Shown here piece after piece: positions 35,827-53,997 of a stretch of 64,000 nucleotides of DNA; the stretch's first letter is position 1, and the number at the start of each line of letters is the position of its first letter. The position numbers and the translations under genes are program-made. The notes below the pieces were generated by a model, which worked only from the letters and a program-made list of their open reading frames with translations, was not told the DNA's origin and ran no database searches. The stretch spans positions 7,916 to 71,915 of the forward strand of contig JAOHKG010000002.1 in the NCBI GenBank assembly GCA_028101095.1, read 5' to 3'. The DNA comes from Fidelibacterota bacterium. GTDB taxonomy: Bacteria; Fidelibacterota; Marinisomatia; Marinisomatales; UBA1611.

Positions 35827-36540
35827 ATGTTAGTCGAAATCCTTAAAATAATAAAAGCACTTCCTAGCCAGCATTTAATATATGGTGTTATAAGCACTGT
35901 ATTATGCATTGCTGCTGCATGGGTTTATAGCAAAAGCTCAGAAAAATTAAAAAAAATTATTATTCAAGCTGTCTCATATCTTGTTATCTTTAATGAAGTT
36001 GCATTCCAAATAAATATGGTTTTTTATGGTATTTGGTCAATAAAGACATCTCTTCCCTTAGAAATGTGTTACATCTCAGCTCTATTGATACCGTTTTACA
36101 GTATGAATAATCAATCAAGGACTCTTAAAAATTGGTTCTTTTTTGCTGGTTTTTGTGGTTCTCTTTTTGCTTTTATAAACACCAATCTATCTGAGTTTGA
36201 GCAAATATACATATCTATTCACTACTTCTTTGCGCACGGGCTTGTGATTTTCATAGCTTTTAGCATTATAGTCGATGGCTATAGGCCAGTTTGGAAAGAC
36301 TATTATAACGTAATAAAAAGGACTACCTTATTAGTCTTAATAATTATAATCCTAAATATTTTATTAGGTAGTAATTATATGTTCACGTTTGAAAAACCTG
36401 AAGGTATAAATTTTACTTTACTAATGCCCGAGTGGCCTTATTATTTTTTAATCATGTTGTTAGTTGGGCTGACTTCATATACCGTGATGATGCTATTTAT
36501 GTTTTTACCTAAAACAAATAACGCTCATAACGATCATTAG
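35827..36540 (+). CDS. Multi-pass integral membrane protein (possibly TIGR02206/YwaF-like)
   Basis: 237 aa with about 7 hydrophobic segments. The family call is tentative. Confidence 0.45.
   Translation: MLVEILKIIKALPSQHLIYGVISTVLCIAAAWVYSKSSEKLKKIIIQAVSYLVIFNEVAFQINMVFYGIWSIKTSLPLEMCYISALLIPFYSMNNQSRTLKNWFFFAGFCGSLFAFINTNLSEFEQIYISIHYFFAHGLVIFIAFSIIVDGYRPVWKDYYNVIKRTTLLVLIIIILNILLGSNYMFTFEKPEGINFTLLMPEWPYYFLIMLLVGLTSYTVMMLFMFLPKTNNAHNDH
36520..36537 (+). promoter_or_regulatory. Tandem 9-bp direct repeat (site A) upstream of the lipid-modification operon
   Basis: AACGCTCAT AACGATCAT, followed by TTGCAT/TTGACA (-35-like, 36544-36554) and the ATG at 36578. Confidence 0.5.
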
Positions 36541-36577
36541 AGATTGCATTGACAATCTTAAATTAATAGATTAGAAC

Positions 36578-37096
36578 ATGAATATAAATAACATTATAAA
36601 TATAATCGGATTTCAATTATGCTGGTGGTCTTGTGTTTTATTCGCAAAAACAGATTACTATTATACTGGCCCTTTTTTTATGGCTTGCTTCATTTTTTTC
36701 CATCTATGGAAGGTATCGAAAAAGAATTTTGAGATCAAGTTAATATTAATTTTTTCAATATTAGGTACTGTCATTGATAGTCTTATTATGCAAACAAAAA
36801 TTTTAAGTTATGAAGGGTTATATTCATCGGCTTTACCGATTGCTCCACTTTGGATAACTGCCATGTGGTGCGGCTTTGCTGCGACAGTAAACCATTCAAT
36901 GTCATGGTTGGATAAAAAATGGTTTCTCTCGGTTATTCTTGGTGCCGTATTTGGACCGTTATCCTACATTACCGCTGCAAAATTTGAAGCTATTAGTTTA
37001 TCTTCAGACATTACAATAGTTGTCGTTGTACTTGCTGTGGTATGGGGTTTGAGTATGCCTTTAATATTCTGGGTAAATGGTAAAATAAAGATTTGA
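36578..37096 (+). CDS. DUF2878-like membrane protein
   Basis: 172 aa, 4-5 TM, NIIGFQLCWWSCVLF start. Position at the head of a CFA-synthase cluster. Confidence 0.5.
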   Translation: MNINNIINIIGFQLCWWSCVLFAKTDYYYTGPFFMACFIFFHLWKVSKKNFEIKLILIFSILGTVIDSLIMQTKILSYEGLYSSALPIAPLWITAMWCGFAATVNHSMSWLDKKWFLSVILGAVFGPLSYITAAKFEAISLSSDITIVVVVLAVVWGLSMPLIFWVNGKIKI

Positions 37097-37097
37097 A

Positions 37098-37805
37098 ATG
37101 AAGCTTATACTTTTAAATAAACTTACTATTTTTATTTGTTTTCATGTCACTTGTTTATATGGAGAAATATCAAGTAATAAGTCTTATAATTTATTTAGTT
37201 CATTATTAGACGAAAAAGAATGGGTCTTGGATGAAAATATTGAAGATATAACTATAAGTAAAAAAGCTTTAAATAGTAAAAATATTTTTGCACTTAAAGT
37301 TGAGAAAAAAAGTTTTATTCCAATTCACACTATTCAAGAAGTTTTGAAAGATATAAATAGATATGATGAGTTTTTATCTAACTCAAAAACTGTGAAGTCA
37401 CTTAGGCTAAATCATTCTGATAATTGGGTTGACGCTTATCAATATATTTCAAGTAACATACCGTTTTTAAGTGACCGGAAATATTGTTTTAGAATATCAT
37501 CAGAACAAATCAATAAGGATGACTCGTTATCAATTGTACACTGGTTTCTCTTGGATCAAAATGAGTGTGATATTGTAGGTGAAATGTATGAAAATAATGC
37601 AATTTATCTTCATTTTGGAGCTGGATTATGGTTGGCCGAAAAACAAAGCGACGGTTCATCTATCATATCATATATTATTTATATCGACCCTGGAGGAGCT
37701 ATCCCAACTTTTGTAATTGACAAAGCAAATAGGATAAGCGTAACAACTATTTTAGAAGATGTTCTAACAGAAGCATCCAGACGAATTAAAAAAAGAGGTA
37801 AGTAA
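37098..37805 (+). CDS. START-domain lipid-binding protein (SRPBCC superfamily)
   Basis: 235 aa with a signal-like N-terminus. IQEVLKDINRYDEFL and IPFLSDRKYCFRI resemble START motifs. Confidence 0.55.
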   Translation: MKLILLNKLTIFICFHVTCLYGEISSNKSYNLFSSLLDEKEWVLDENIEDITISKKALNSKNIFALKVEKKSFIPIHTIQEVLKDINRYDEFLSNSKTVKSLRLNHSDNWVDAYQYISSNIPFLSDRKYCFRISSEQINKDDSLSIVHWFLLDQNECDIVGEMYENNAIYLHFGAGLWLAEKQSDGSSIISYIIYIDPGGAIPTFVIDKANRISVTTILEDVLTEASRRIKKRGK

Positions 37806-38353
37806 TGGGAAAAAAAATAAGCCGTACAACTTTCACTCTATTTCTTCTTTCTATATTTGGATGTTTGAATAGTAATCAGAATGGAGATAAAAGTATAATG
37901 AAAACAGTGGAATATGTAGATATTGAAAGATTTATGGGCGATTGGTACGTCATAGCCAACATTCCTACGTTTATTGAAAAGGAAGCTACTAATGCAATTG
38001 AATCGTATCGATTAGATAGTGATGGAAATATAGCCACAACTTTCACTTTTTTTAAAAAATCTTCTCCAGAAAAAAAAGTAAAATATACCCCCAAAGGTTT
38101 TATTGTCAATAAAAAAAGTAATGCAGAGTGGGCTATGCAATTCTTATGGCCTTTTAAATCAAAGTTTTTGATAATTAATTTAGATGAAAATTACCAAACT
38201 ACCGTTATTGGTCACCCAAGTAAGAAATATGTTTGGATTATGTCACGGAACCCCATAATTGAAGATAAAAAGTATAAATCTATATTGGATTTTCTCTCAT
38301 CTATAGGATATGATATTGCAGAAATAAAGGACGTCCCCCAAGATTGGGATTAA
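37805..38353 (+). CDS. blc: Bacterial lipocalin (Blc-like) lipoprotein
   Basis: Lipobox-like LLSIFGC. FMGDWYVIANIPTFIEKEATNAIESYRLDSDGNI lipocalin signature. Confidence 0.8.
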   Translation: MGKKISRTTFTLFLLSIFGCLNSNQNGDKSIMKTVEYVDIERFMGDWYVIANIPTFIEKEATNAIESYRLDSDGNIATTFTFFKKSSPEKKVKYTPKGFIVNKKSNAEWAMQFLWPFKSKFLIINLDENYQTTVIGHPSKKYVWIMSRNPIIEDKKYKSILDFLSSIGYDIAEIKDVPQDWD

Positions 38354-38381
38354 CCATTTCAAAGTCGTAAAGATATAAACT

Positions 38382-39632
38382 ATGAAAATTGCAATTATAG
38401 GTTCAGGTATTTCAGGGCTTACATCTGGGTACTTATTAAGTCGAAAAAACAATGTTACTGTATTTGAAAAAAATAATTACATAGGTGGACATACCCATAC
38501 TCATTCATTAGAATTTGAAAATAGAACTTATTCTGTAGACTCAGGGTTTATTGTTTACAATGAGAGAACTTATCCAAACTTTATTAAAATTTTGGATCAA
38601 TTGAATGTAAAACGCCAAATAACTAGAATGGGATTTAGTGTTAAGTCAGAAATACATGATTTAGAGTATGCCGGACATTCTTTAAATGGTCTTTTTGCTC
38701 AAAGATCTAATTTAGTAAAACCATCATATCTTAATATGCTTAGAAGTATGTTAAGGTTTAACAGGCAATCAAGAAAAGATTTAGCTATGTTAAGTCCGCA
38801 CTTAACACTCGGCCATTACCTAGAAAATAATAATTACCCTGAAACGTTTATAAAAAATTTCATTATCCCGATAGGAGCAGCGGTATGGTCAACTAAGCCT
38901 ACTGACATGATGGATATGTCTGCGATCTTTTTTATTAGGTTTTTTGAAAACCATGGAATGCTCCAAATAATTGACCGTCCTAAATGGTGGGTAATTAAAA
39001 ATGGTTCTAAATCTTATGTAAAAAGTATTACCAAAAATTTTTATAGTAAAATTAGATTATCTACTCCTGTTGTAAATGTTGAAAGAGTGGATGGTAAAGT
39101 TAGAATCAGTTCTGGAAGGAATAAGGTTACAGAAGAGTTTTTTGATGCAGTTATCTTTGCAACTCATAGTGATCAATCTTTAAAGTTATTAAAAGATCCT
39201 TCAAACCTTGAAAATGAAATTTTAAGCTCAATACCTTATCAAAATAACAAAGCTATTTTACATTATGATGATTCAATCTTACCTAAGAGAAAAAATGCAT
39301 GGTCAAGTTGGAATTATTTATTAGATAGAGATGAGAATCAGCCACTCTCACTTACCTACAATATGAATATTTTACAGGGAATAGATTGTAAAAGAACCTT
39401 CTGTGTTTCCCTTAATAGTGAGAAGTTAATTGACCCTAAAAAAATCCTAAAAACGCTTGATTATGATCATCCTTTATTCAATATTAAAGGTCTAGAAGCT
39501 CAAAAGCGAAAGCATGAGATCAGTGGGATTAATAATACTTATTATTGCGGTGCCTATTGGAGGAATGGTTTTCATGAAGATGGTGTTGTGAGTGCATTAG
39601 ATGTTTGCGCAGATTTTGGTGAATTTTTATGA
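38382..39632 (+). CDS. FAD/NAD-binding oxidoreductase (amine-oxidase/COG2907-like)
   Basis: KIAIIGSGISGLTSGY...VFEKNNYIGGHTHT dinucleotide-binding fold. Confidence 0.8.
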   Translation: MKIAIIGSGISGLTSGYLLSRKNNVTVFEKNNYIGGHTHTHSLEFENRTYSVDSGFIVYNERTYPNFIKILDQLNVKRQITRMGFSVKSEIHDLEYAGHSLNGLFAQRSNLVKPSYLNMLRSMLRFNRQSRKDLAMLSPHLTLGHYLENNNYPETFIKNFIIPIGAAVWSTKPTDMMDMSAIFFIRFFENHGMLQIIDRPKWWVIKNGSKSYVKSITKNFYSKIRLSTPVVNVERVDGKVRISSGRNKVTEEFFDAVIFATHSDQSLKLLKDPSNLENEILSSIPYQNNKAILHYDDSILPKRKNAWSSWNYLLDRDENQPLSLTYNMNILQGIDCKRTFCVSLNSEKLIDPKKILKTLDYDHPLFNIKGLEAQKRKHEISGINNTYYCGAYWRNGFHEDGVVSALDVCADFGEFL

Positions 39633-40405
39633 GTCTTTCATTAAAAAGTTATTTATATACAGGTACAATACAGCATAAAAGGTATACACCCGTCAAGCAT
39701 TTTTTTACTTATCCTTTATTTTTTGCTTATATAGACCTGGATTCTATCAGTTCAACATTAAAAAAATCATGGTTTTGGAATATTAATAAACCTGCAATTA
39801 TATCATTTAATCGAGAGGATTATCATGGAGATAAGAATACTGATTTATCATCATCTGTTCGTGATACAATTCTTGAAAAAACAGGAACCAGGCCAAATGG
39901 CCCCATTAGACTTTTAACCCACTTGAGGTATTTTGGTTATTGTTTTAATCCTGTTAGTTTTTATTATTGTTTTGACAGTGAAGATAAAGAGTTAGAAGTT
40001 ATTTTAGCAGAGGTTACAAATACTCCATGGAAAGAAAGACATGCCTATGTTATTGATAAAAAATCAAAAAAAGAGGCTCTGGCATTTGATATTGATTTAG
40101 AAAAAAAATTGCATGTAAGCCCTTTTTGGGGGATGGATCATCGTTATAAATGGATGTTCTCACCTCCGGAAAAAAAGCTATTAATAAATATGAAAAATTT
40201 TAAAGAAGAATCAAAAGTTTTTGATGCAACTTTAAAGCTAGACCGTCTACCCTTAACTAGAAAAATGCTTTTAAAACAGATAATTAAGTTTCCTTTTATA
40301 ACGATTGTAGTTGTAATGAGAATTCATTTAAATGCAATTTTACTGTGGGTTAAAAGAGTTCCTTTCCATGTACATCCAAATAAAATACAAAATGAGAATA
40401 AATAA
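39629..40405 (+). CDS. DUF1365 family protein
   Basis: YTGTIQHKRYTPVKHFFTYPLFFAYIDLD, typical of a DUF1365 N-terminus. ATGA overlap with the upstream gene. Confidence 0.75.
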   Translation: MSLSLKSYLYTGTIQHKRYTPVKHFFTYPLFFAYIDLDSISSTLKKSWFWNINKPAIISFNREDYHGDKNTDLSSSVRDTILEKTGTRPNGPIRLLTHLRYFGYCFNPVSFYYCFDSEDKELEVILAEVTNTPWKERHAYVIDKKSKKEALAFDIDLEKKLHVSPFWGMDHRYKWMFSPPEKKLLINMKNFKEESKVFDATLKLDRLPLTRKMLLKQIIKFPFITIVVVMRIHLNAILLWVKRVPFHVHPNKIQNENK

Positions 40406-40410
40406 GAATT

Positions 40411-41682
40411 ATGAACCAAAATTATCAAATAAAAGAATTAGCAGATTCAGTTAGCTCTTCGAAAAAGAGTACTTTATTATCTTCTGTTTTCAAAAAGGCT
40501 CTAATTAAAAAATTTAAAAATATTGAGATTGGGTTTATTGAGCTAATTGATAAAAATAATAAATATTATTTTGGAAAAAGTTCTGATAAGCTAAAAGCCT
40601 CTATTACTGTTAATTCCCAAGAATTTTATGTTTTTTTAGGTAGTGGTGGAACTCTTGGGGTTTCAGAATCTTATATGGCAGGATATTGGGAGTCCGACAA
40701 CTTGGTAGCTCTTTTGCAAATTGTTTTGAAAAACAGACCAGTTCTAGAATCTCTTGATTCAGGTATTGCCAAGCTAATTCAGCCAATAAACAAAAAAATT
40801 CATAAAAATCGACAAAATACTTTGAAAGGAAGTAAAAATAATATTCTAGCTCATTATGATTTGAGTAATGAGTTTTATAAACTTTGGTTGGATTCAACAA
40901 TGACTTATTCTTGTGGTTATTTCAAAAATACCCAATCTACGCTGAAAGAAGCTTCTATTGAAAAAATAGATAGAATTTGTCGGAAATTAGAGTTGTCTGA
41001 AAGTGATACCCTACTAGAGATCGGAACAGGTTGGGGCAGTTTTTCTGCTTATGCAGCGGAAAATTATGGTTGCAGTATTGTAACCACTACGATTTCGGAT
41101 GCTCAATATGAATACGCTGAATCACTTTTTAAAAAGAAAGGCTTAGAATCTAAAATTAAATTAATCAATATGGATTACCGTAAATTAGAAGGTCAATATG
41201 ATAAAATAGTTTCCGTAGAAATGATTGAAGCTGTTGGGTACCAATACATTCCAGAGTACTTAAAAAAAATTAACTTATTATTAAAACCAAACGGAAAAGC
41301 TGCGATACAAGCTATCACATATAATGACCAGAATTTTGATACTTATAAAAATTCGGTTGACTTTATTAAAAAATATATTTTCCCTGGTTCATGCCTAGTG
41401 TCACTTGCTCAAGTAATAGATGTATTAAAAGTTTACACCGACATGGCTCTAGTTGATATGGAAGATATTACTATTCATTATGCAGAAACCTTAAAACAAT
41501 GGCGAGGAAACTTCCTAGAGGTTATCCCAGAAGTTAAAAAATTAGGATTTTCAAATTCGTTTATTAAAATGTGGGAATTTTATTTTGTTTTCTGTGAGGC
41601 TGGCTTTCTAGAGCGTAATATAGGAGACATCCAAATGATTTTAGCAAAAAGTAACACAAGAGATATAAGGATTAATTATTAA
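40411..41682 (+). CDS. cfa: Cyclopropane-fatty-acyl-phospholipid synthase family methyltransferase
   Basis: HYDLSNEFYKLWLDSTMTYSCGYF and SAM motif LLEIGTGWG. Confidence 0.85.
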   Translation: MNQNYQIKELADSVSSSKKSTLLSSVFKKALIKKFKNIEIGFIELIDKNNKYYFGKSSDKLKASITVNSQEFYVFLGSGGTLGVSESYMAGYWESDNLVALLQIVLKNRPVLESLDSGIAKLIQPINKKIHKNRQNTLKGSKNNILAHYDLSNEFYKLWLDSTMTYSCGYFKNTQSTLKEASIEKIDRICRKLELSESDTLLEIGTGWGSFSAYAAENYGCSIVTTTISDAQYEYAESLFKKKGLESKIKLINMDYRKLEGQYDKIVSVEMIEAVGYQYIPEYLKKINLLLKPNGKAAIQAITYNDQNFDTYKNSVDFIKKYIFPGSCLVSLAQVIDVLKVYTDMALVDMEDITIHYAETLKQWRGNFLEVIPEVKKLGFSNSFIKMWEFYFVFCEAGFLERNIGDIQMILAKSNTRDIRINY

Positions 41683-41684
41683 TT

Positions 41685-42719
41685 ATGGTAAAAACGTTAA
41701 TTCAATTGGCTGAAAAAGGTTTAATTCCTGATTTTTTAATTAGAATTGGAATTAAAAAGTTATCCAAAGTTCGTCTTGATTGGGCTAAAAACTCTACTCC
41801 AGGTCAAGTTGCTAAAAGGCATCAAGATTGGGTTGAGACGCTTAAAAATAGTCCAATTGCACTGGTGCCAGAAAAAGCGAACGAACAACATTATGAGGTG
41901 CCTCCATCTTTTTTTAAGTATTGTTTAGGTCCTAATCTAAAATATAGCTCGGGCTATTGGCCTAAAAATGTTCATAGTCTAGAAGGCTCTGAGAATGCGA
42001 TGTTAGAACTAAGTTGTGAGAGAGCTGAAATTAGAAATGGTCATAAAATTTTAGAGTTAGGCTGTGGCTGGGGCTCACTTACATGTTTTATGGCTATGAA
42101 ATATCCTGAAAGTCATATCACAGCGGTTAGTAATTCGAAAGATCAAAAGAAGCATATTCTAAAAAGATGTGCAGAAAATCAAATTAAAAATGTTGAAGTG
42201 ATTACCGCTGATATGAATGATTTTGATATTAAAGAAAGTTTTGATAGAGTTGTTTCAATCGAAATGTTTGAGCACATGCGCAACTATAAAGTCTTATTGT
42301 CTAAGGTCGCTGGTTTTTTAAAAAGTGGAGGTAAGGTTTTTATTCATATCTTTACACATCAATTTTTAGCATACCCATTTGAAGATCAAGGTGATGGTGA
42401 CTGGATGGCTAGAGAGTTTTTCAGCGGTGGAATGATGCCATCACATAACCTTCTGTTGCACTTTCAAGAGGATGTAAAAATTGATTGTATTTGGAGATTA
42501 TCAGGGACTCATTATGAAAAAACCTCTTTAGCTTGGTTGAAAAAGATGGATAAGAATAAAAAACAAATAATTAAGATATTCAACAAAACTTATGGAGAAG
42601 ATCAGGCCCAACTTTGGTTTCAAAGATGGAGAATTTTTTATTTATCATGTGAGCAACTTTTTGGATATGAAAATGGAACTGAGTGGGGTGTTTCGCATTA
42701 CAGGTTTGTAAAAAAATAA
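41685..42719 (+). CDS. Second CFA-synthase/mycolic-acid-methyltransferase family SAM-dependent methyltransferase
   Basis: EQHYEVPPSFFKYCLGPNLKYSSGYW and SAM motif ILELGCGWG. Confidence 0.8.
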   Translation: MVKTLIQLAEKGLIPDFLIRIGIKKLSKVRLDWAKNSTPGQVAKRHQDWVETLKNSPIALVPEKANEQHYEVPPSFFKYCLGPNLKYSSGYWPKNVHSLEGSENAMLELSCERAEIRNGHKILELGCGWGSLTCFMAMKYPESHITAVSNSKDQKKHILKRCAENQIKNVEVITADMNDFDIKESFDRVVSIEMFEHMRNYKVLLSKVAGFLKSGGKVFIHIFTHQFLAYPFEDQGDGDWMAREFFSGGMMPSHNLLLHFQEDVKIDCIWRLSGTHYEKTSLAWLKKMDKNKKQIIKIFNKTYGEDQAQLWFQRWRIFYLSCEQLFGYENGTEWGVSHYRFVKK

Positions 42720-42734
42720 ATTGGATTAACATAT

Positions 42735-43451
42735 ATGTATATTTTACTTTTCATATTTTTTCATTGGTATTTCTCGCTGTTCTTTCAGACATTTTTTTTA
42801 CATAGGTATGCTTCTCATAATATGTTTAAAATGAATATGTTCTGGGAAAAAGTATTTTTCTTTTTTACTTTTATTTTTCAAGGATCCTCGTTCCTTAACC
42901 CTGCTGCATACGCGATAATGCATAGGCGTCACCACTCTTTTACAGATACAGAAAAAGACCCTCATTCACCTTTATTCATTAAAAACATTATTTTATTTAA
43001 TATTGCAACAGCGACGAGGTATAGAGAATTAGTTGAAAAGATCAATCAAGGAAGAATTAAAGAAAAAAATTTACCAAGATGGCCTTTCCTTGAAAAATTA
43101 GGGGAATCATTACTGATAAGAGCTCTTTTTATTCTTATTTATTTTAGCTTTTACTATTCATTTACGACTGCCTCCTGGCAATATATATTTTTACCTCTAA
43201 ATATTTTTATGGGGCCGCTTCATGGATTTATTGTGAACTGGTTTGGTCATAAGACGGGGTACAGAAATTTTCCTGAATTAGAAGATAATTCAAAAAACTC
43301 ATTGCCAATAGATTTTTTAATGATGGGGGAGTTATATCAGAATAATCATCACAAAAAGCCAAATGATATTAATTTTGCTAAACGTTTATTTGAAGTAGAC
43401 TTTGGATTTTTAATATCAGAATTATTTAAAAAGATGAGGATAATATATTGA
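42735..43451 (+). CDS. Membrane fatty-acid desaturase family protein (short)
   Basis: His boxes HRYASH, HRRHH and QNNHH, with hydrophobic segments. Confidence 0.7.
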   Translation: MYILLFIFFHWYFSLFFQTFFLHRYASHNMFKMNMFWEKVFFFFTFIFQGSSFLNPAAYAIMHRRHHSFTDTEKDPHSPLFIKNIILFNIATATRYRELVEKINQGRIKEKNLPRWPFLEKLGESLLIRALFILIYFSFYYSFTTASWQYIFLPLNIFMGPLHGFIVNWFGHKTGYRNFPELEDNSKNSLPIDFLMMGELYQNNHHKKPNDINFAKRLFEVDFGFLISELFKKMRIIY

Positions 43452-44338
43452 AAGTAATTAATCATAACCCTAAAGACTATTTAGCTATAAGTTTCATTTT
43501 TTTTATTTCTTGCTTACTCTCTTACGGAGTAGGATTTGAAATGCCGACATATTCTGGGTTTCCCATTATTTTCATCTGTATGGTGTTTAGTTTTTTAGTT
43601 CATTGGATTGCTTTTATCCCCTCATATTTTTTTAAGACTGAAAAATTTTATGATATTTCAGGAACATTAGCATATTTGATTGTCATAGGTTCCGCAACAC
43701 TTTTAACAAAAAAATTATCGGGAGAACAATTTTTTCTTCGATCGTATATTATCTCAATATTAGTAATTATTTGGGCCTTGAGATTAGGGCTATTTTTATT
43801 TATTCGCGTTTTAAAGAATGGCGAAGACCGTCGTTTTAGAGAGCCAATGAAATCATTTTCTAAATTTCTTCTATGGTGGAGTATGTCAGCATTATGGGTC
43901 TTTCTCACAACGCTTAATGCGGTTACTCTTATAATTAATAATTATAAAATAACTTATGATTATTTTTTCTTTATTGGTATTTCACTCTGGATTTCAGGTT
44001 TCATTATTGAATTAATCTCAGATGAGCAAAAAAGAAGGTTTAAAAAAGACGATAAAAATAAAGAATTATTTATTTCTTCAGGCTTGTGGAGCTTATCTAG
44101 GCATCCAAATTATTTTGGAGAGATAGTGATTTGGATAGGTGTTTTCGTCATATCAATACCAGCATTACATGGAATGCAATTCTTAAGTATTCTATCACCT
44201 ATTTTTGTCTACTTTTTGTTAACCCGAATCAGTGGTGTCAACCTACTTGAAGAAAGAGCGGATCTCAAATGGGGAAATTTGGAAGGTTATAAGCGTTATA
44301 AAAAAAATACCTCCATACTCTTCCCGTATAAATCATAG
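43448..44338 (+). CDS. DUF1295 / steroid-5-alpha-reductase-like membrane protein
   Basis: SRHPNYFGEI motif, multi-TM. 4-nt overlap with the upstream gene. Confidence 0.75.
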   Translation: MKVINHNPKDYLAISFIFFISCLLSYGVGFEMPTYSGFPIIFICMVFSFLVHWIAFIPSYFFKTEKFYDISGTLAYLIVIGSATLLTKKLSGEQFFLRSYIISILVIIWALRLGLFLFIRVLKNGEDRRFREPMKSFSKFLLWWSMSALWVFLTTLNAVTLIINNYKITYDYFFFIGISLWISGFIIELISDEQKRRFKKDDKNKELFISSGLWSLSRHPNYFGEIVIWIGVFVISIPALHGMQFLSILSPIFVYFLLTRISGVNLLEERADLKWGNLEGYKRYKKNTSILFPYKS

Positions 44339-44341
44339 TAT

Positions 44342-44923
44342 ATGTCAAAAAATTTAAAGTTAATATTAAATTTTTTTATTTTTACAAACTTATCACTTAA
44401 CCATCTTATGGCAATTGAAACACCGAAATATAGGTTACTAAAAAAAGATAATAAAATTCAAATAAGAGATTACGAATCAGCTATCGTAGCTAAGACTTAT
44501 GTAACTGATAATTTTAAAGAAGCATCGTCTACTGGTTTTAGGCGAATTGCTAATTACATTTTTGGTGGAAACAGTAAGGGCAAAAGCATTTCAATGACTG
44601 CGCCAGTTCTAGTCTCTAAAGATAATGATACTAATAAACATGAAATCCTCTTTTTTATGCCTCGTGAATATAAAATTGAAACATTACCCAAGCCTTCTCT
44701 AGAAAGCGTAGTCGTTGAAGATAGGTCTCTAGGGAAAGTAGCATCTATAAGTTTTGGGGGCTGGGCAACTGAAAAGAATATTCTCTACAATAAGGAAATA
44801 TTAAAAAAATATCTAAAGAAAAATAGTTATGAGATTTTAGATAATTTTATGGTGGCACAGTATAACTCTCCTTGGGCTATTCCTCCTTTTAGGAGAAATG
44901 AAATCCTTGTGAAAATTAATTAA
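44342..44923 (+). CDS. SOUL heme-binding-family protein
   Basis: IETPKYRLL, FRRIANYIFGGN and ISMTAPV motifs. Confidence 0.75.
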   Translation: MSKNLKLILNFFIFTNLSLNHLMAIETPKYRLLKKDNKIQIRDYESAIVAKTYVTDNFKEASSTGFRRIANYIFGGNSKGKSISMTAPVLVSKDNDTNKHEILFFMPREYKIETLPKPSLESVVVEDRSLGKVASISFGGWATEKNILYNKEILKKYLKKNSYEILDNFMVAQYNSPWAIPPFRRNEILVKIN

Positions 44924-44963
44924 ACTCAATTAAACTTATCACCTAATTAAAAGGATAATTAAA

Positions 44964-45305
44964 ATGCTAATAAAAATAGAAATCCTAATTGAAGCATTAA
45001 AAATAGTAGCTGCAGTCGCTGTTTTTTTTGTTTGGGTTGTTAGATATGATAATATAAAAAAAGAGTTTGAGAAGTTTGGTTTTCCAAGCTGGTTTAGAGA
45101 TATGATAGGTATCCTTAAAATATCATTTACATTTATGCTGCATTCAGCTAATAATTATACTGTCTTATTAGGCTCTTTTGGGATTGTATCTCTGATGATT
45201 GGAGCAATTCTTACACATGTTAAAATAAAAAATCCAATAACAGAAATGTTTCCTGCAATATCAATGTTGTCCATAGGGATCCTTATATTATACTCGAGCC
45301 TATAA
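44964..45305 (+). CDS. Small DoxX-like membrane protein
   Basis: 113 aa, 3-4 TM. Tentative family call. Confidence 0.4.
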   Translation: MLIKIEILIEALKIVAAVAVFFVWVVRYDNIKKEFEKFGFPSWFRDMIGILKISFTFMLHSANNYTVLLGSFGIVSLMIGAILTHVKIKNPITEMFPAISMLSIGILILYSSL

Positions 45306-45315
45306 TTTAGAATAA

Positions 45316-45333
45316 ATCGCTCAAATCGCTCAA
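45316..45333 (+). promoter_or_regulatory. Tandem 9-bp direct repeat (site B)
   Basis: ATCGCTCAA ATCGCTCAA. Followed by TTGCTT (45341-45346), a 17-nt spacer and TATATT (45364-45369), then the ATG at 45395. Confidence 0.5.
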
Positions 45334-45394
45334 ATTTTATTTGCTTACTTTCTCTAGCTTTTATATATTTTTATATTAATAATTAAGATAAAAT

Positions 45395-45868
45395 ATGACT
45401 TTTCAACAAAAAGTAGTACTAAATAATATTCAGCCCTTAGACGTAATTAGATCTTTTCATAATCATAATTTTGTGGAATTTTTAATCAGTGGGCAACCGG
45501 TAAAAATTAACTCTTGGAAAGGCATTGACGATAATAAAAAAGCCTCTTTTTCATTCTGGTTTTTTGGTTGGAGAAAGATGAATGTTATTCATAAAAATTA
45601 TCATGTCTCTAGGGATAACCTCAGTTTTGAGGACTGTGGTACTGACTTACCTTTTGGGCTCTTAGAATGGAAACATGAACATGTTGTTAGGCCTTACGGA
45701 AATGGGTCAATTATCGAGGACAATGTTACGATGGATAGGTCTTCATTTGTTAAAAGAGTCTTTATTTACCCAATTATGTTGTTCCCAATTTTTATTAGGC
45801 GCATCACTTACAAGATTTGGTTTTATTTTTTAGAAGGAAAAAAATGGAGTTCATTTAAAACATCATGA
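45395..45868 (+). CDS. SRPBCC-fold ligand-binding protein (COG4276-like), tentative
   Basis: 157 aa. LLEWKHEHVV resembles the W-x-H-x-H motif of that family. Confidence 0.4.
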   Translation: MTFQQKVVLNNIQPLDVIRSFHNHNFVEFLISGQPVKINSWKGIDDNKKASFSFWFFGWRKMNVIHKNYHVSRDNLSFEDCGTDLPFGLLEWKHEHVVRPYGNGSIIEDNVTMDRSSFVKRVFIYPIMLFPIFIRRITYKIWFYFLEGKKWSSFKTS

Positions 45869-46353
45869 GACTAACACTTAAAATTTTCACTTATCTTATA
45901 TTTATAGTCCAGATATTCTCGAAGCCTGAGTCAGGAGAAGGAGTCTTGAATGATACTTGGAGATCTGAAAATAATTCTAAATACAAAGTCTGGTTTCAAA
46001 ATTGGTCAAGTTACACAAGATTATTCATTACTATTAATGAAGATACTTTATCAGTTCAAGCTAACAAATATGCGGTTACCAATAAAGAAAAGCCTTACTT
46101 ATTTCCGGCAACTTTCAGTCAAATACTTAAAAGGCAGATTATAGGTAACATAGATTGGGAGGACAACATTTCTTGGGAAGACGGACACGTTAATACCTTT
46201 ACCTACATAGTTGATCGGTCAAATCCTAAAATAGCTCTACCTGTTAAGTTTGAAGGTATTGCAGTCCTTGAAAATGGAAAGCTACGTCTAGAGCTTATCT
46301 CGAGCCGTGATTTAAAATACCACATGCAACTAGTTCCAACATCTGTAGAATAA
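45865..46353 (+). CDS. Exported hypothetical protein
   Basis: 162 aa with a signal-like N-terminus. ATGA overlap with the upstream gene. Confidence 0.45.
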   Translation: MRLTLKIFTYLIFIVQIFSKPESGEGVLNDTWRSENNSKYKVWFQNWSSYTRLFITINEDTLSVQANKYAVTNKEKPYLFPATFSQILKRQIIGNIDWEDNISWEDGHVNTFTYIVDRSNPKIALPVKFEGIAVLENGKLRLELISSRDLKYHMQLVPTSVE

Positions 46354-46367
46354 ATTTGTAGTTTCTA

Positions 46368-46874
46368 TTGAAAAAAAAATATTATAGTAGTCCTATTGTT
46401 ACACTTTCTGAAGAAAATCTCAAAACCAAAAATAATAAAAGTAAAAATGTTGTAACACTAGATGCTCCTGATTGGGTCAACATAATACCGATCACGGCTT
46501 TTAATGAAGTTGTTTTTGTTGAGCAGTTAAGGTATGGAACGGGAAAAGTTACTTTAGAAATCCCTGGGGGAATGGTAGACAGTGGTGAAACAAATCAAAT
46601 GGCCGCAGAAAGAGAGTTGCTCGAAGAAACTGGTTTCCAGGTAGAAAATGTTATTGAACTTGGTAGCTTATCTCCAAATCCCGCCTTATTCACAAACAAA
46701 GTAACTAGTTATGTAGGACATAGTGCCAAAAAAAATAAAGATATTTCTTCTAATGATAAAAATATTAAGGTACATCTAATTCCAATAAAAGATGTTAATC
46801 TATTAATAAATAATGGTGAAATAGATCACGCCCTAGTCGTTGCAGCCTTTTTCCTGTTTAGGAATAGAGGGTAA
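46368..46874 (+). CDS. NUDIX hydrolase
   Basis: Nudix box GGMVDSGETNQMAAERELLEETGF. TTG start. Confidence 0.8.
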   Translation: MKKKYYSSPIVTLSEENLKTKNNKSKNVVTLDAPDWVNIIPITAFNEVVFVEQLRYGTGKVTLEIPGGMVDSGETNQMAAERELLEETGFQVENVIELGSLSPNPALFTNKVTSYVGHSAKKNKDISSNDKNIKVHLIPIKDVNLLINNGEIDHALVVAAFFLFRNRG

Positions 46875-46892
46875 AACGCTCAAAACGCTTAA
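46875..46892 (+). promoter_or_regulatory. Tandem 9-bp direct repeat (site C)
   Basis: AACGCTCAA AACGCTTAA, immediately after the NUDIX stop codon. Confidence 0.5.
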
Positions 46893-46898
46893 AAATCC

Positions 46899-46928
46899 TT
46901 GACACTTATGTCCCTTATCTATTATATT
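46899..46928 (+). promoter_or_regulatory. Sigma-70-type promoter
   Basis: TTGACA (46899-46904), an 18-nt spacer, TATATT (46923-46928). AAGGAG RBS at 46940-46945 before the ATG at 46951. Confidence 0.55.
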
Positions 46929-46950
46929 TGATCAAGATAAAGGAGTTCTT

Positions 46951-47232
46951 ATGAATATTTTACAAGCAGTATCAGAAGGTGCAGATTTAAAACATGCCAA
47001 TGAGAGGCGTGAGGTTAAAAATAACTTTGACGCACGGAAAGCAGATCAAGATTTAAGAGCTTGTCCTTCGTGCAAAGCAGTCTGGGAGATTATGGTTTTT
47101 AATCAAACAATTGATTATAAATATTATCACAATTTTCCAAGATATGGTAAAAAGAGAGGCGTCTGTCCAAGCTGTGCAATTAGAACTAAGAATAAATATT
47201 ATCACAATTCAGAAGTGCTAGATCCTTCATGA
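46951..47232 (+). CDS. Small zinc-ribbon-like protein (two CPSC motifs)
   Basis: 93 aa with CPSCKAVWE and CPSCAIRT. Good RBS. Confidence 0.55.
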   Translation: MNILQAVSEGADLKHANERREVKNNFDARKADQDLRACPSCKAVWEIMVFNQTIDYKYYHNFPRYGKKRGVCPSCAIRTKNKYYHNSEVLDPS

Positions 47233-47531
47233 GCTTATCTTTCATAGATCATATTGCAATAGAGTCTACCGACATTCCGAAATCAGTTGCATGGTATTCC
47301 AATAAATTTGATTGTGAAATAAAGCATCAAGATACTACTTGGGCACTTTTATCGTTTCAAAATATATCCGTAGCTCTTGTAACTCCCGGTGATCATCCTC
47401 CACATTTTGCAGTATATGATAAGAAACTCGGAGCATCAAAAAATTTACAAATTCACAGAGATGGAATAGGGTATAAATATGATAAAGACCCTGACAAAAA
47501 TGTAGTAGAATTGATTGATAGGAAAACATAA
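47229..47531 (+). CDS. Glyoxalase/VOC-family small protein
   Basis: 100 aa. IDHIAIESTDI start typical of the VOC fold, and HFAV. Confidence 0.55.
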   Translation: MSLSFIDHIAIESTDIPKSVAWYSNKFDCEIKHQDTTWALLSFQNISVALVTPGDHPPHFAVYDKKLGASKNLQIHRDGIGYKYDKDPDKNVVELIDRKT

Positions 47532-47554
47532 TTGTGGCAAGCGTTCAAGTGGTG

Positions 47555-47710
47555 ATGGAAAAAAATTATTGTATTGTTTCTGCCTTCGATGAAGATGCAA
47601 ACGATTTAGCTGAAAAAGTTCAACATTTGCTTTCGGATGGTTGGTCAATCTCAGGTGGAATAGCCTCCCTGAATAGTAAGCTGTATCAAACATTAGTAAA
47701 GGGTATCTAA
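47555..47710 (+). CDS. Small DUF1737-like protein (below the ORF-track size cutoff)
   Basis: 51 aa: MEKNYCIVSAFDEDANDLAEKVQHLLSDGWSISGGIASLNSKLYQTLVKGI. Its stop overlaps the next start (TAATG). Confidence 0.45.
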   Translation: MEKNYCIVSAFDEDANDLAEKVQHLLSDGWSISGGIASLNSKLYQTLVKGI

Positions 47711-48408
47711 TGAATGTATTAATTATTGGTGCTTCTGGTGGCATTGGAACTGTACTAGTTGATGACTTAGTAGACCTTTCCTTCAATCTCCTCCTTGGTT
47801 ACCGGTCAAATAAGCCGGTAATCAAATCTACTGAGTCACAGCTAGTCAATGCTGAAAGTTTTCAAGACGTCCACAATTTCGTTCAGAGTGGATTAGAAAA
47901 ATTTGGTAGGGTTGACGCAATTGTTAACTTGCCTGGAAATTTAATATTAAAACCCGCGCACCTCTGTTCAGAAGAAGAATTTTATGATACGGTCAATAAA
48001 AATTTGAAATCAGCTTTTGCTGTTGTGAGAGCTGCTGGGTCCCTCTTGAAAGACTGTTCAGTAGTTTTATTATCTACCGCTGCAACAAATATAGGTTTAG
48101 CGAATCATGAACTAATATCGAGTGCGAAAGCCGGAGTAGAAGGCCTAGCTAAATCTGCTGCAAAAACTTACGCACGCAAAAATCTTAGGTTTAATTGTGT
48201 AGCTCCGGGTTTAGTAGACACTCCGCTGTCTTCTAGAATTACAAGTAATCCCATCGCACTCAAATCAAGTCAAAAAATGCATGCTCTTGGTAGGATAGGT
48301 AAACCTAGTCATGTAAGCAACATGATAAAATTTTTAATTAAATCCGAAAATGATTGGATAACAGGCCAGAACTTCGTTGTTGATGGTGGATTATCTTCTA
48401 CAAAATAA
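47710..48408 (+). CDS. Short-chain dehydrogenase/reductase family protein (divergent)
   Basis: VLIIGASGGIG cofactor motif and NCVAPGLVDTP. The YxxxK position reads ISSAK. Confidence 0.7.
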   Translation: MNVLIIGASGGIGTVLVDDLVDLSFNLLLGYRSNKPVIKSTESQLVNAESFQDVHNFVQSGLEKFGRVDAIVNLPGNLILKPAHLCSEEEFYDTVNKNLKSAFAVVRAAGSLLKDCSVVLLSTAATNIGLANHELISSAKAGVEGLAKSAAKTYARKNLRFNCVAPGLVDTPLSSRITSNPIALKSSQKMHALGRIGKPSHVSNMIKFLIKSENDWITGQNFVVDGGLSSTK

Positions 48409-48426
48409 TAAGTAAAGGAAAATAAG

Positions 48427-48750
48427 ATGAAAAAAGTAGCACTAAGAAAGAACAGGTTTGAAAAGTCAGAGTTCAAAGAGACCGAATGGACAAAAAAGTC
48501 TAAAAATCTGGGTGAATATGTATTTAGAAGAATTTCACTTGACCAGTCAGACAAATCTCTGCAGGAAGTAAGACCAAGACATATACTAAGCAAGCTCATA
48601 ATTGGCAGTGGTGAAATACAGAATTACGTTTGTGACTACCTTGCAATGGTTGAGCAACAAACTGCGGGAAGTGCTAACTATTTAAATATGGATAATGCAC
48701 CAAAAGATTTCAAAAATCTCCAAAAGAGTATAGTTGTTCCACTTTCATAG
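48427..48750 (+). CDS. Hypothetical protein
   Basis: 107-aa ORF with an AAGGAAAATAAG ATG context. No motif recognised. Confidence 0.4.
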   Translation: MKKVALRKNRFEKSEFKETEWTKKSKNLGEYVFRRISLDQSDKSLQEVRPRHILSKLIIGSGEIQNYVCDYLAMVEQQTAGSANYLNMDNAPKDFKNLQKSIVVPLS

Positions 48751-49352
48751 TGAACATTAATTCATTCTATCACAATTACATCAAAAGGTATATTATGTTA
48801 GCCTCTATAGCCACTATGGCTTCAGGTGCGGTCTCACTTTTATTTTCTAAAAGTACTATTGTTGCTGAACCAGGGAAAATATCACAAGCCTCATTTTATG
48901 ATATAGATATTGAGTTAAATAACGGAGAAAATTTTTCTCTAAGCAATTTAAAAGGGAAAAAAATAATGATAGTTAATGTTGCCTCGAAGTGTGGTTTTAC
49001 GTCACAATATTCAAAGCTCCAAGAGCTATACAAAAAAATGGATGGTGAACTTGAAATTATAGCAATACCTTGTAATGATTTTGGAAGACAAGAGCCTGGA
49101 TCTGCCGAGCAAATTAAAACTTTCTGTGACCTAAACTATAATATAACATTTCCAATTGCTGCAAAACAAAGTACGAGAGCAGACAGTCAGTTGTATGATT
49201 GGCTTTCAAAACCTTCAAAAAATGGTTGGAATGATAAACTACCTTCTTGGAATTTTTGTAAGTATCTCATTGACGAAAAAGGTGAGCTCACACATTTTTT
49301 CAAGAGCAGTGTCAGCCCTTCAGGAAAAGAAATTTTATCAGCATTAAAATAA
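48750..49352 (+). CDS. Glutathione peroxidase family protein (Cys type)
   Basis: VNVASKCGFT with a TGT Cys codon, and a WNFCKYLI motif. The true start may be the internal ATG at 48795. Confidence 0.85.
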   Translation: MNINSFYHNYIKRYIMLASIATMASGAVSLLFSKSTIVAEPGKISQASFYDIDIELNNGENFSLSNLKGKKIMIVNVASKCGFTSQYSKLQELYKKMDGELEIIAIPCNDFGRQEPGSAEQIKTFCDLNYNITFPIAAKQSTRADSQLYDWLSKPSKNGWNDKLPSWNFCKYLIDEKGELTHFFKSSVSPSGKEILSALK

Positions 49353-49376
49353 ATTAATTCTTATTATAGATAAATA

Positions 49377-49508
49377 TTGAAAAAGCAGTTCCTTCCAGAA
49401 AAAAAATGCCCAGTTTGTGGCTTTAATTTTACTTGGAGAAAGAAATGGAAACTGAATTGGGAATCAGTTAGATATTGTAGTAAAAAGTGTAGTTCAAATA
49501 GAAATTAA
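49377..49508 (+). CDS. DUF2256-like zinc-ribbon mini-protein (not in the ORF track)
   Basis: TTG start, 43 aa: (M)[42 protein letters not shown]. CxxC...CxxxC with an RKKW motif. Sits 8 nt upstream of the cryptochrome/photolyase-family gene. Confidence 0.55.
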
Positions 49509-49516
49509 ATTTTACA

Positions 49517-51001
49517 ATGAAATTTACTTTAATCTATCCAAATCAATTATTCTATAATCACCCTGCTATTAGCAAAAATCAGCAAATTGTTCTAGTTGAA
49601 GATCCTCTTTTTTTTGGAGATACTCAATATCCTCTTAAGTTTCATAAAAAAAAAATAGTGCTTCATCTCGCTTCGATTGAATCGTTTAAAAAAGAATTAA
49701 TTGATAGAGGCTATAGTGTAATAAAATATAATTATTCTGATTTAATTGAGAAAAATCACAACATAAAATTATTAAAATCTCTGAAAGCAACAGAGATCTC
49801 CCTAGCCAGAGTAGTGGACTATACCCTAGAAAAAAGACTAGTCAAAGCAGCAAAATATCTCAAGATTAAAATTAATTGGTTTGAAACTCCAGGCTTTTTT
49901 CTAAATGCTGAAGAAGTAGTCGAAAATTTTGGTAAGAAGAAAAAATACTTAATGAACAGTTTCTATATCAATCAACGTAAAAAACTAAATATTTTACTAG
50001 ACGATAATTATAATCCAATTGGAGGAAAGTGGAGTTTTGATTTAGAAAATAGAAAAAAGCTTCCAAAGAATATTGTTATTCCAAAAATATCACAAATCTG
50101 TTACAAAAAAAATGAAATTGAAAAATCTATCAAAACTGTAGAAGATATTTTTTCTTCAAACTTAGGTACTGTAAAGAATTTTAACTTTCCAATTTCTAGG
50201 TTACAAGCTCAAAAATCATTTAGAGAATTTTTAGAAAAGAGGCTTCATTTATTCGGCGTGTATGAAGATGCCATCGCAAAAGAAAATAATTTTGTTTTTC
50301 ATAGTATTATTACCCCGTACTTAAATATTGGCTTGATTACTCCAGATGAAATAGTTAGTGAAACTTTAGAATATGCGAATCAAAACGAAATTCCTTTGAA
50401 CTCTTTGGAAGGTTTTATACGTCAAATTATTGGTTGGAGAGAATTTATAAGAGGTATTTACACTACAGATGGAGTAAGACAACGTAACGGTAATTTTTGG
50501 AAATTTAATAGAGAAATTCCCAATGCTTTTTATACTGGAGATACAGGGCTCGATCCTCTGGATAATACTATTAAACATTGCCTTGAAAGTGGATATACAC
50601 ATCATATAGAAAGACTTATGATATTAGGTAACATTATGGTTTTGTTGGGGATTAAGCCGGAATCAGTCTACAATTGGTTTATGGAGATTTTCATTGATTC
50701 TTATGACTGGGTAATGGTTCCCAATATATTTGGTATGAGCCAATACGCAGATGGAGGGCTCATGTCTACTAAGCCGTATATTAGCGGAAGTAATTATATT
50801 TTAAAAATGAGTAACTATAAAAAAGGTGAATGGAGTGAAACATGGGATGCTTTATACTGGAATTTTATTAATAAGAACAGAGAGTTTTTCAAAAAAAATC
50901 CGCGAATGAGCATGATGGTTTCTATGTATGATAGGCAAAAACTAGATAAAAAAAATCGAGATGCTTATATCGTAAAAACTTTTATAAATTCACTTTTCTA
51001 G
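49517..51001 (+). CDS. Cryptochrome/photolyase-family protein (COG3046 / CryPro-FeS-BCP-related)
   Basis: 494 aa. GWREFIRGIY, GYTHHIERLMILGN and STKPYISGSNYILKMSNY are typical of the photolyase-related COG3046 group. Confidence 0.8.
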   Translation: MKFTLIYPNQLFYNHPAISKNQQIVLVEDPLFFGDTQYPLKFHKKKIVLHLASIESFKKELIDRGYSVIKYNYSDLIEKNHNIKLLKSLKATEISLARVVDYTLEKRLVKAAKYLKIKINWFETPGFFLNAEEVVENFGKKKKYLMNSFYINQRKKLNILLDDNYNPIGGKWSFDLENRKKLPKNIVIPKISQICYKKNEIEKSIKTVEDIFSSNLGTVKNFNFPISRLQAQKSFREFLEKRLHLFGVYEDAIAKENNFVFHSIITPYLNIGLITPDEIVSETLEYANQNEIPLNSLEGFIRQIIGWREFIRGIYTTDGVRQRNGNFWKFNREIPNAFYTGDTGLDPLDNTIKHCLESGYTHHIERLMILGNIMVLLGIKPESVYNWFMEIFIDSYDWVMVPNIFGMSQYADGGLMSTKPYISGSNYILKMSNYKKGEWSETWDALYWNFINKNREFFKKNPRMSMMVSMYDRQKLDKKNRDAYIVKTFINSLF

Positions 51002-51051
51002 AGTTGATATCAAAGAATTTCTATGAATAGATTTTCGTCACCTACAACAAG

Positions 51052-51069
51052 AAAGTTCAAAACGCTCAT
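51052..51069 (+). promoter_or_regulatory. Tandem 9-bp direct repeat (site D, one degenerate copy) upstream of the regulator gene
   Basis: AAAGTTCAA AACGCTCAT, followed by TTGCAT (51071-51076) and the ATG at 51112. Confidence 0.4.
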
Positions 51070-51111
51070 TTTGCATTTTAATTATAATTATTTTATACGT
51101 ATATTTATATA

Positions 51112-52008: not shown

Positions 52009-52027
52009 AAAACTTTATTATCTATTT

Positions 52028-53359: not shown

Positions 53360-53394
53360 AGATTAGACTCCAATATAAAACATAACGGTTCATT

Positions 53395-53997
53395 GTGGAA
53401 AAAAAAGAAGACTCAATTAAATTTTGGGAGAATAAATACGCTCTTGATAATACAGGTTGGGATTTGAATGGTCCAACTCCTGTTTTTGATAATATTTCAA
53501 AAAATATAAAGAAAGGTAAAGTTTGTATTCTTGGATGTGGGCGTGGTTATGATGCTGTCATGTTTGCAGAAAGAGGTTTTTCTGTTACTGCAGTAGACTT
53601 TGCGCCTAGTGCTGTGGAAGCACTGAATAACTTAGTTAACAAGAAACCAAAAAATTTAACAGTACTCCAGAAAGATATATTTAGTCTTGAAAATAACTAT
53701 TTTGAATATTTTGATTATATAATAGAGCAAACTTGCTTCTGCGCAATACATCCAAAACGAAGACCTGACTATGCGAGGCTCGTTACTAATATTATTAAGA
53801 AAAATGGATACTTAATTGGTCTTTGGCTTCCTCTAAATAAAAAAATAAAAGAAGGAGGTCCCCCCTATGGAACCACAATTAAAGAGGTTAAAGCCCATTT
53901 TACTAAAAAGTGGATTGTTGATAGAGAAGAATTTTCTGAGTTCTCAATTCCTTCAAGAAAAAATAATGAAAAACTAATTATATTTAAGAAAATATGA
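53395..53997 (+). CDS. TPMT/HOL-type SAM-dependent methyltransferase
   Basis: GTG start. WENKYALDNTGWDLNGPTPVF then VCILGCGRGYDAVMFAERGFSVTAVDFAPSAV. Confidence 0.65.
   Translation: MEKKEDSIKFWENKYALDNTGWDLNGPTPVFDNISKNIKKGKVCILGCGRGYDAVMFAERGFSVTAVDFAPSAVEALNNLVNKKPKNLTVLQKDIFSLENNYFEYFDYIIEQTCFCAIHPKRRPDYARLVTNIIKKNGYLIGLWLPLNKKIKEGGPPYGTTIKEVKAHFTKKWIVDREEFSEFSIPSRKNNEKLIIFKKI

Follow-up and report, generated by a model that had tools for sequence, protein, structure and literature searches.

Four promoters in one gene island of a Fidelibacterota bacterium are each preceded by a pair of 9-bp direct repeats, and this pair is probably the operator of the regulator encoded at 51112–52008 in the 64-kb stretch of contig JAOHKG010000002.1 analyzed here (the window). 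As read from sequence, a bound oligomer of this protein would repress the adjacent promoters in the dark and be released by a light-linked signal, placing four transcription units, among them the one containing its own gene, under common control. The consensus is AWCGCTCAW twice, in direct orientation and at a spacing of exactly 9. When both strands of the window were scanned with AWCGCTCAWAWCGCTCAW, allowing up to three mismatches, only four places matched, all on the + strand and all oriented with the genes they precede:

36520–36537, + strand: site A, 18-mer AACGCTCATAACGATCAT, reading AACGCTCAT AACGATCAT
45316–45333, + strand: site B, 18-mer ATCGCTCAAATCGCTCAA, reading ATCGCTCAA ATCGCTCAA, a perfect pair
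46875–46892, + strand: site C, 18-mer AACGCTCAAAACGCTTAA, reading AACGCTCAA AACGCTTAA
51052–51069, + strand: site D, 18-mer AAAGTTCAAAACGCTCAT, reading AAAGTTCAA AACGCTCAT, the putative autoregulatory site upstream of the regulator gene

Shuffled versions of the window contain 0.40 matches on average, and none of 100 shuffles reached four. The initial annotation had reported these four tandem 18-mers, and no further tandem copy in the window, from inspection of the letters; all four are exact, and the density that it had proposed to compare with shuffled DNA clearly exceeds the chance level. The sites end 40 (A), 61 (B), 58 (C) and 42 (D) nt before start codons at 36578, 45395, 46951 and 51112, which are genuine starts of open reading frames (ORFs); the distance given earlier was 41–62 nt. 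Site A overlaps the final codons of the upstream ORF at 35827–36540 and is not purely intergenic, and at site D the first repeat is consistently weaker throughout the relatives, which have A or T in place of C3. The 9-bp spacing between repeat cores holds in 34 of 42 cases. As for isolated half-sites noted before, the one at 26449 (ATCGCTCAT) is real and none was found at 43866.

Conservation among relatives carries much of the argument. A scan by regulator alignment, with one genome kept per species, yielded 34 loci from Candidatus Neomarinimicrobiota (Marinimicrobia/SAR406), whose homologues share 53–78% protein identity with the regulator. The pair ends 40–42 nt before the regulator ATG in all 33 loci with upstream sequence, down to 53% identity, and is the sole conserved block upstream of the gene, the flanking AT-rich DNA not being conserved. 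(Locus L035, from relative P0131, is uninformative, having only 81 nt upstream and a regulator gene that follows another gene.) This footprinting of orthologous promoters, which had been recommended in the initial annotation, supports its two central predictions, a shared operator of a light/UV regulon and autoregulation through site D. At up to two mismatches, the window and the 34 loci together (584 kb) contain 84 sites, of which 82 lie on the gene strand, and ten first-order Markov simulations of the same 584 kb gave 0 or 1 site each. The other window sites also have counterparts: site A upstream of DUF2878 in L005, L048 and L078; site B before the gene for the 157-residue protein or DoxX in L001, L003, L006, L030, L002, L031, L108 and L106; and site C, in 20 or more loci, before the Zn-ribbon gene.

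The motif also accompanies much more distant regulators. In L060, L152, L156, L157, L159 and L160/L161, whose regulators retain the B12 signature and are only ~20–29% identical to the window protein, the pair lies beside the regulator gene in genomes of 36–62% GC, and the sites adjoin carotenoid, photolyase and SRPBCC genes. In L060, for example, the pair is followed by 5 nt, TTGCAC, 17 nt and TATATT. L152 has one site before the regulator gene and a second that follows closely on the −10 element of a divergent lycopene cyclase/phytoene desaturase operon, and L156 has one before the regulator gene and a perfect one before an SRPBCC/NAD-binding gene pair. The pair is likewise beside the regulator gene in L157 (51% GC) and L159, and in L160/L161 (62% GC), which encode the CtMerR-like protein P0227, it lies 18 nt before the start codon, with a polyprenyl synthetase gene nearby in L160. 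The pair thus stands beside the genes of B12-signature relatives in very different genomes, and the motif therefore follows the protein family. This co-occurrence is the strongest computational argument that the regulator family binds the motif, and the pair is most likely, as a prediction, a family-wide operator of this regulator type.

A position matrix built from 83 sites places the pair in a uniform promoter layout. Information is confined to positions −1 to 18 (the pair), 26–28 (TTG), 49–54 (TAnnnT) and, in one class of promoters only, 61–63 (ATG), so that the order is pair, 6–7 nt, −35, 17 nt, −10. In the window this layout corresponds to the following predicted promoters, all on the + strand:

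36544–36549, + strand: site A, −35 TTGCAT (offset 6), then 17 nt, −10 TAGATT at 36567–36572 and ATG at 36578; putatively leaderless
45341–45346, + strand: site B, −35 TTGCTT (offset 7), then 17 nt and −10 TATATT at 45364–45369
46899–46904, + strand: site C, −35 TTGACA (offset 6), with −10 TATATT ending at 46928
51077–51082, + strand: site D, −35-like TTTAAT, then 17 nt, −10 TATATT at 51100–51105 and ATG at 51112; putatively leaderless

The site-C promoter is the top σ70-like match in the 19 kb scanned. The initial annotation had placed −35-like hexamers 1–11 nt after each site; those at A, B and C fit the layout conserved in relatives, and the one chosen at D, TTGCAT at offset 1, is conserved in no relative and gives way to TTTAAT. 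CarH-type regulators had also been cited there as binding tandem direct repeats that overlap −35. In the window and at most other sites the pair covers about −60 to −43, 5′ of −35 and clear of it. A degenerate third or fourth repeat, comparable to the pseudo-repeats of CarH, was considered and rejected for want of any matrix signal, and a weak third repeat is seen at L002, L031 and L005 only. At the regulator, DUF2878 and SRPBCC promoters the ATG follows the pair by 40–42 nt, and because this spacing is conserved (window and L001–L034), transcription is predicted to start on the A of the ATG, which suggests that leaderless mRNAs occur in Marinimicrobia. A Shine-Dalgarno sequence is present at promoters whose ATG lies 57–61 nt from the pair. 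With TAAnTT(t) at −10 and (t)TTg at −35 (51100–51112 and 36567–36578 of the window; loci L001–L034), the core elements are reminiscent of the Bacteroidetes-type −7/−33 promoter.

The protein that would read this operator has 298 residues and combines an N-terminal HTH_17/BldC-like winged helix with a CarH-like four-helix bundle and Rossmann domain. Its N-terminal domain matches PF12728 HTH_17 (34.2 bits, cutoff 27) and PF13411 MerR_1 (29.1 bits, cutoff 21.6), and its best NCBIfam match is HTH_BldC (30.9 bits, below the cutoff of 77). Sequence matches in the PDB include BldC (6amk, E = 6e-4; 6ama, E = 1e-3), RacA and, as the closest solved relative by sequence, CtMerR (8jbs, E = 1.2e-18 over residues 5–268, spanning the DNA-binding and B12 domains). 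The HTH_17-type domain carries GGHR(K/R)F, and the family shares the invariant residues R22, W23, T34, G36, H38 and R39. In the remainder of the protein PF02310 scores 28.7 bits, below its cutoff of 32.1, and PF02607 gives no match. The AlphaFold2 model (pLDDT, the model's confidence score, 81) retrieves full-length TtCarH as the top Foldseek matches (5c8e, 5c8d and 5c8f), superimposes on the CtMerR B12 domain with a TM score of 0.8, and has further matches in AerR and the heme-binding SCHIC domain of AppA. The protein is nevertheless not a canonical CarH: it reaches 19.9 bits with the NCBIfam CarH equivalog NF052513, whose cutoff is 400, all four light motifs for adenosylcobalamin (AdoCbl) are absent, and its repeats number two of 9 bp, not 11 bp.

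We propose that this BldC-like winged helix, joined to a CarH-like oligomerization/sensor module, would place two DNA-binding domains in head-to-tail order on the repeat pair. The bound oligomer would keep RNA polymerase off the adjacent promoter as long as the system is uninduced (dark); a light-linked signal would then release it and turn on the four units spanning 36578–53997, with their photolyases, cryptochrome-like protein, glutathione peroxidase, fatty-acid-modifying cluster and the regulator. The sites themselves, their conservation, the fixed promoter geometry and the co-occurrence with the regulator family across phyla are observations, and from them we infer that the protein binds the pair, that it acts as a repressor, in which oligomeric state it does so and what kind of signal it answers to.

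Sites A to D head four gap-free transcription units that tile the island:

36578–45305, + strand: unit A, 11 genes, named by Pfam match
45395–46874, + strand: unit B, 157-residue and 162-residue proteins without a family match and a NUDIX hydrolase
46951–51001, + strand: unit C, from the Zn-ribbon gene to the photolyase-related gene
51112–52008, + strand: regulator gene (298 residues), the first gene of unit D
52028–53359, + strand: class II CPD photolyase of unit D (TIGR00591, 595 bits)
53395–53997, + strand: TPMT-like methyltransferase of unit D

Unit A encodes DUF2878, START-like, lipocalin, amine oxidase, DUF1365, two CFA-synthase-like methyltransferases, a fatty-acid desaturase, DUF1295, SOUL and DoxX, and by these predicted products is a lipid-modification and photo-oxidative-stress cluster. 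Unit C begins with a 93-residue Zn-ribbon protein, a glyoxalase-like protein, a small DUF1737-like protein and an SDR, and continues with a 107-residue protein without a family match, glutathione peroxidase, a DUF2256 protein and a photolyase-related/cryptochrome-like DPRP (49517–51001). Two of these small genes fill apparent gaps in the unit: 47534–47710 encodes the DUF1737-like protein (58 residues), whose gene has its own operator in some relatives (L017 and L018), and 49377–49508 encodes the DUF2256 zinc-ribbon protein (43 residues, 3e-17) directly 5′ of the photolyase-related gene. Pfam and NCBIfam gave no match for the 93-residue Zn-ribbon, 157-residue, 162-residue and 107-residue proteins, or for the 165-residue SRPBCC-like protein. 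The island lies in an unusually long co-directional stretch, with almost every ORF of more than 100 residues in positions 1–60000 of the window on the + strand.

Relatives extend the predicted regulon. An SRPBCC-like gene together with one for an NAD(P)-binding protein, after the photolyase gene, keeps its own site, and the small DUF1737-like gene and an SDR with a pyrimidine-dimer glycosylase are further members. The pair also precedes a proteorhodopsin gene (PF01036, 5e-38) in L023 (6088) and L024 (6102), and a light-driven pump may thus be under the same control in some Marinimicrobia. In L053 the pair (position 2803) separates a rhodopsin gene from a DUF2237 gene that diverges from it. A metagenome scan for the exact 18-mer gave many chance matches in high-GC coding DNA, from which real sites were separated by GC content, ORF span and flank composition; such sites were found at FAD_binding_7 and photolyase genes, DUF2237 and an extracytoplasmic function (ECF) sigma factor. 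The last of these is a perfect pair at 115–132 of L129, a marine contig of 38% GC, 30 nt before the ECF gene (Sigma70_r2/r4), and hints at a regulatory cascade in some lineages. On two phage-like metagenome contigs, three perfect pairs 33 bp apart lie in intergenic DNA (L056, 4055–4138; L054, 5386–5469) next to a terminase-small-subunit-like gene (phrog_2538, 4e-11) whose helix-turn-helix reads GVNVSTIRRW, compared with GVNISTLKRW in the regulator; in L111 a similar gene lies 170 nt downstream of a site. The phage pairs could be a packaging or regulatory site read by a related helix, or could reflect a phage tapping the host regulator. Longer head-to-tail arrays, with at least five copies of ATCGCTCAA or AACGCTCAA, occur inside long ORFs on unrelated contigs of 38–54% GC (L099, 128–181; L135, 340–375; L114, 1359–1403) and probably reflect tandem repetition within coding sequence, with no connection to the operator.

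What the regulator senses is a separate question. The AdoCbl light signature consists of GxxW, EH, GxxH (which supplies the lower-ligand His) and GxxxP (PMC11796333). In the window protein and all 14 close homologues these positions read ENAL, EAF, NLPD(L) and GSHAE, and the motifs are kept in more distant relatives. The Marinimicrobia clade instead has an 8-residue Cys-rich insert with an invariant LCxMQCC (227–233); cysteines 118, 173, 228, 232 and 233, three of them in this insert, are invariant in the 15 aligned homologues. The canonical signature being absent, sensing therefore probably does not use the classical CarH mechanism, and canonical cobalamin sensing is unlikely. We regard it as possible, at somewhat less than even chances, that the Marinimicrobia branch gave up cobalamin, losing the lower-ligand His, the Trp and the Glu-His cap and gaining the Cys cluster, and senses light stress in another way, all while keeping the ancestral 9-bp operator. 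In that case the protein would rely on another cofactor, for instance heme (compare the structurally similar SCHIC domain of AppA), on an Fe-S cluster or the oxidation of thiols by singlet oxygen, or on a partner photoreceptor, for which the co-regulated cryptochrome-like protein is a candidate. Alternatively, cobalamin may still be bound through a non-canonical ligand, for example the invariant H140 or H205. In L156, L157 and L159, where the B12 signature is intact, a gene for a TonB-dependent receptor (CarboxypepD_reg and Plug) directly follows the regulator gene; no such gene follows it in the Marinimicrobia clade, which is without the signature. This receptor might couple the photoreceptor to corrinoid uptake.

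Several points weigh against a light-released repressor acting at these sites. The light/UV function of the regulon is read from gene content, and the absence of GxxW, EH, GxxH and GxxxP weakens the case for the putative light responsiveness of the window protein. Every relative is represented by a metagenome-assembled or single-cell genome. At 33% GC, the composition of the window, core promoter elements are difficult to recognize, and a generic promoter/terminator scan was uninformative (102 found, 92.6 expected). The position at −60 to −43 is typical of activators and not a classical occlusion site, and because the matrix shows neither a third nor a fourth repeat over −35 (past position 18, only −35 and −10 stand out), repression from there would need weak or non-specific contacts or a distortion of the DNA. 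The regulator could be an activator that uses the same site, bound at −60 to −43 and, in the manner of PhoB/OmpR-type direct-repeat activators, recruiting RNA polymerase in the light. The fixed placement of the pair, 6–7 nt 5′ of −35 in most sites, and the poor −35 (TTTAAT) of the regulator's own promoter speak for such a mechanism. We nonetheless think it unlikely, as there are ~12 independent cases in which the pair overlaps −10 or the start site or sits in the 5′ untranslated region (UTR), where an activator cannot work. At the Zn-ribbon gene of L022, L025, L033, L029 and L067, for example, the pair lies 16–18 nt before the ATG, after TTGTAA-17 nt-TAATAT; in L107 it lies 7 nt before a photolyase ATG; and it also overlaps the promoter or 5′ UTR in L019, at the carotenoid promoter of L152 (minus strand) and in L160 (18 nt before the ATG). 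Moreover, most target promoters are near consensus (TTGAC(A/T), TAnnnT, 17-bp spacing), and the characterized LitR/CarH members are repressors (PMC9758184, among other sources). Because of these placements, the good core elements, the repressor relatives and the precedents of CarA and BldC discussed below, the sequence evidence clearly favors repression over activation.

Two further explanations concern the ownership of the motif and its reality. Binding of the motif by the regulator is itself deduced from sequence, and the site before the ECF gene in L129 indicates that other regulators are wired in; a different transcription factor might own the motif, the CarH-like gene being a mere member of its regulon. 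This is improbable, as the motif travels with the regulator family across lineages of 33–62% GC with differing neighbor genes, and its 9-bp head-to-tail period fits a BldC-type domain. Nor is the motif itself an ECF promoter, a candidate that we rejected, as σ70-type −35 and −10 elements follow outside it at a fixed spacing. Finally, chance similarity or a non-regulatory repeat, such as the remnant of a promoter-region duplication, might be suspected: the exact 18-mer does arise by chance in high-GC coding DNA of huge metagenome collections, and simple ATCGCTCAA arrays occur elsewhere (L099 and L135). This explanation is effectively refuted by the 84 sites observed where ~0.2 are expected, by the constraint on strand and position, by conservation of the pair and not of its flanks, and by its presence at orthologous promoters in genomes whose regulators share 53% protein identity. 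An operator of the 51112–52008 regulator, used for repression, thus remains the reading that we prefer.

SAR406/Marinimicrobia are among the most abundant uncultured bacterial groups of the ocean, and to our knowledge almost nothing is known of their gene regulation. The searchable literature yielded no earlier account of the repeat motif or of a light regulon in Marinimicrobia; new here are the 9-bp operator, predicted to be family-wide, and the Cys-rich sensor without a B12 signature. The analysis offers a concrete SAR406 regulon, with an operator, a regulator and ~25 genes that include photolyases, lipid modification, a peroxidase and, in some relatives, proteorhodopsin, and this regulon is testable with diel metatranscriptomes and a simple gel shift. 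For cobalamin photoreceptors of the CtMerR-type branch, which attract interest as optogenetic parts, it also provides a predicted DNA target, and it draws attention to a natural lineage whose B12 sensor module appears to have been rebuilt around cysteines. More broadly, if cobalamin was lost and the operator is family-wide, B12-type photoreceptor regulators of several phyla would have a second mode of DNA recognition, BldC-like and with a 9-bp period.

Compared with known systems, this one works like a LitR/CarH light regulon but fails the tests for CarH itself (signature residues, 11-bp TnnACA repeats and the equivalog model). CarH and class I LitR proteins (Thermus thermophilus, Bacillus megaterium, Myxococcus xanthus) are AdoCbl-dependent photoreceptor repressors that are tetrameric in darkness, dissociate under illumination and come off the DNA; with them the modeled regulator shares the winged helix, four-helix bundle and Rossmann domain, together with tandem direct-repeat operators at the promoter and, here as a prediction, control of its own gene and of photoprotective genes. 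CarH operators consist of three or four 11-bp repeats, nnnnTnnACAn, overlapping −35 or −10, whereas here there are two 9-bp repeats of another sequence and the AdoCbl signature residues are absent; the triple TnnACA repeat is missing from the promoters, its one chance-level match lying inside a coding region. The class II LitR proteins of Pseudomonas (PplR1 and PmlR2) control a similar set of genes, comprising the photolyase PhrB, the cryptochrome-like CryB, the CFA-synthase-like UfaM and the regulator itself (PMC9758184). That regulon is light-induced, and its LitR-type protein lacks canonical B12 binding and relies on a LOV protein as sensor (PMC9758184). No LOV gene was seen in the island, and the class II operator, by contrast, is an inverted repeat, T(G/A)TACA-N12-TGTA(C/T)A, of which the window contains no match at up to one mismatch. 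CarA of Myxococcus xanthus, a B12-independent paralogue of CarH, offers by analogy both a B12-independent derivative of a CarH-type repressor and a precedent for repression from the position of the pair, as its high-affinity site upstream of −35 nucleates occupation of a weaker site over −35. Unlike the present case, CarA occupies palindromes as a pair of dimers and depends on the antirepressor CarS, and no CarS-like gene was identified here.

The closest solved relative by both sequence and fold is CtMerR of Chloracidobacterium thermophilum (PDB 8jbs/8jbt), an AdoCbl photoreceptor forming tetramers in darkness and monomers under light (PMC11796333); its authors conclude that the protein must have ‘an alternative DNA-binding site’, which is not named there (PMC11796333). 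CtMerR binds AdoCbl through His204 and GxxW, EH, GxxH and GxxxP, whereas the window protein is without these and has the Cys-rich insert. On the DNA side the nearest parallel is BldC of Streptomyces, the best-scoring named family for the N-terminal domain. BldC is a stand-alone domain of 68 residues that uses a variable number of repeats; here a 298-residue protein fuses a BldC-like domain to a sensor/oligomerization module and the consensus is AWCGCTCAW. Yet BldC binds cooperatively and head-to-tail to 9-bp direct repeats, AATTxxxxC, and spreads from consensus repeats onto poor ones (PMC5859096), and the pair described here has, at the level of DNA, the same 9-bp head-to-tail period.

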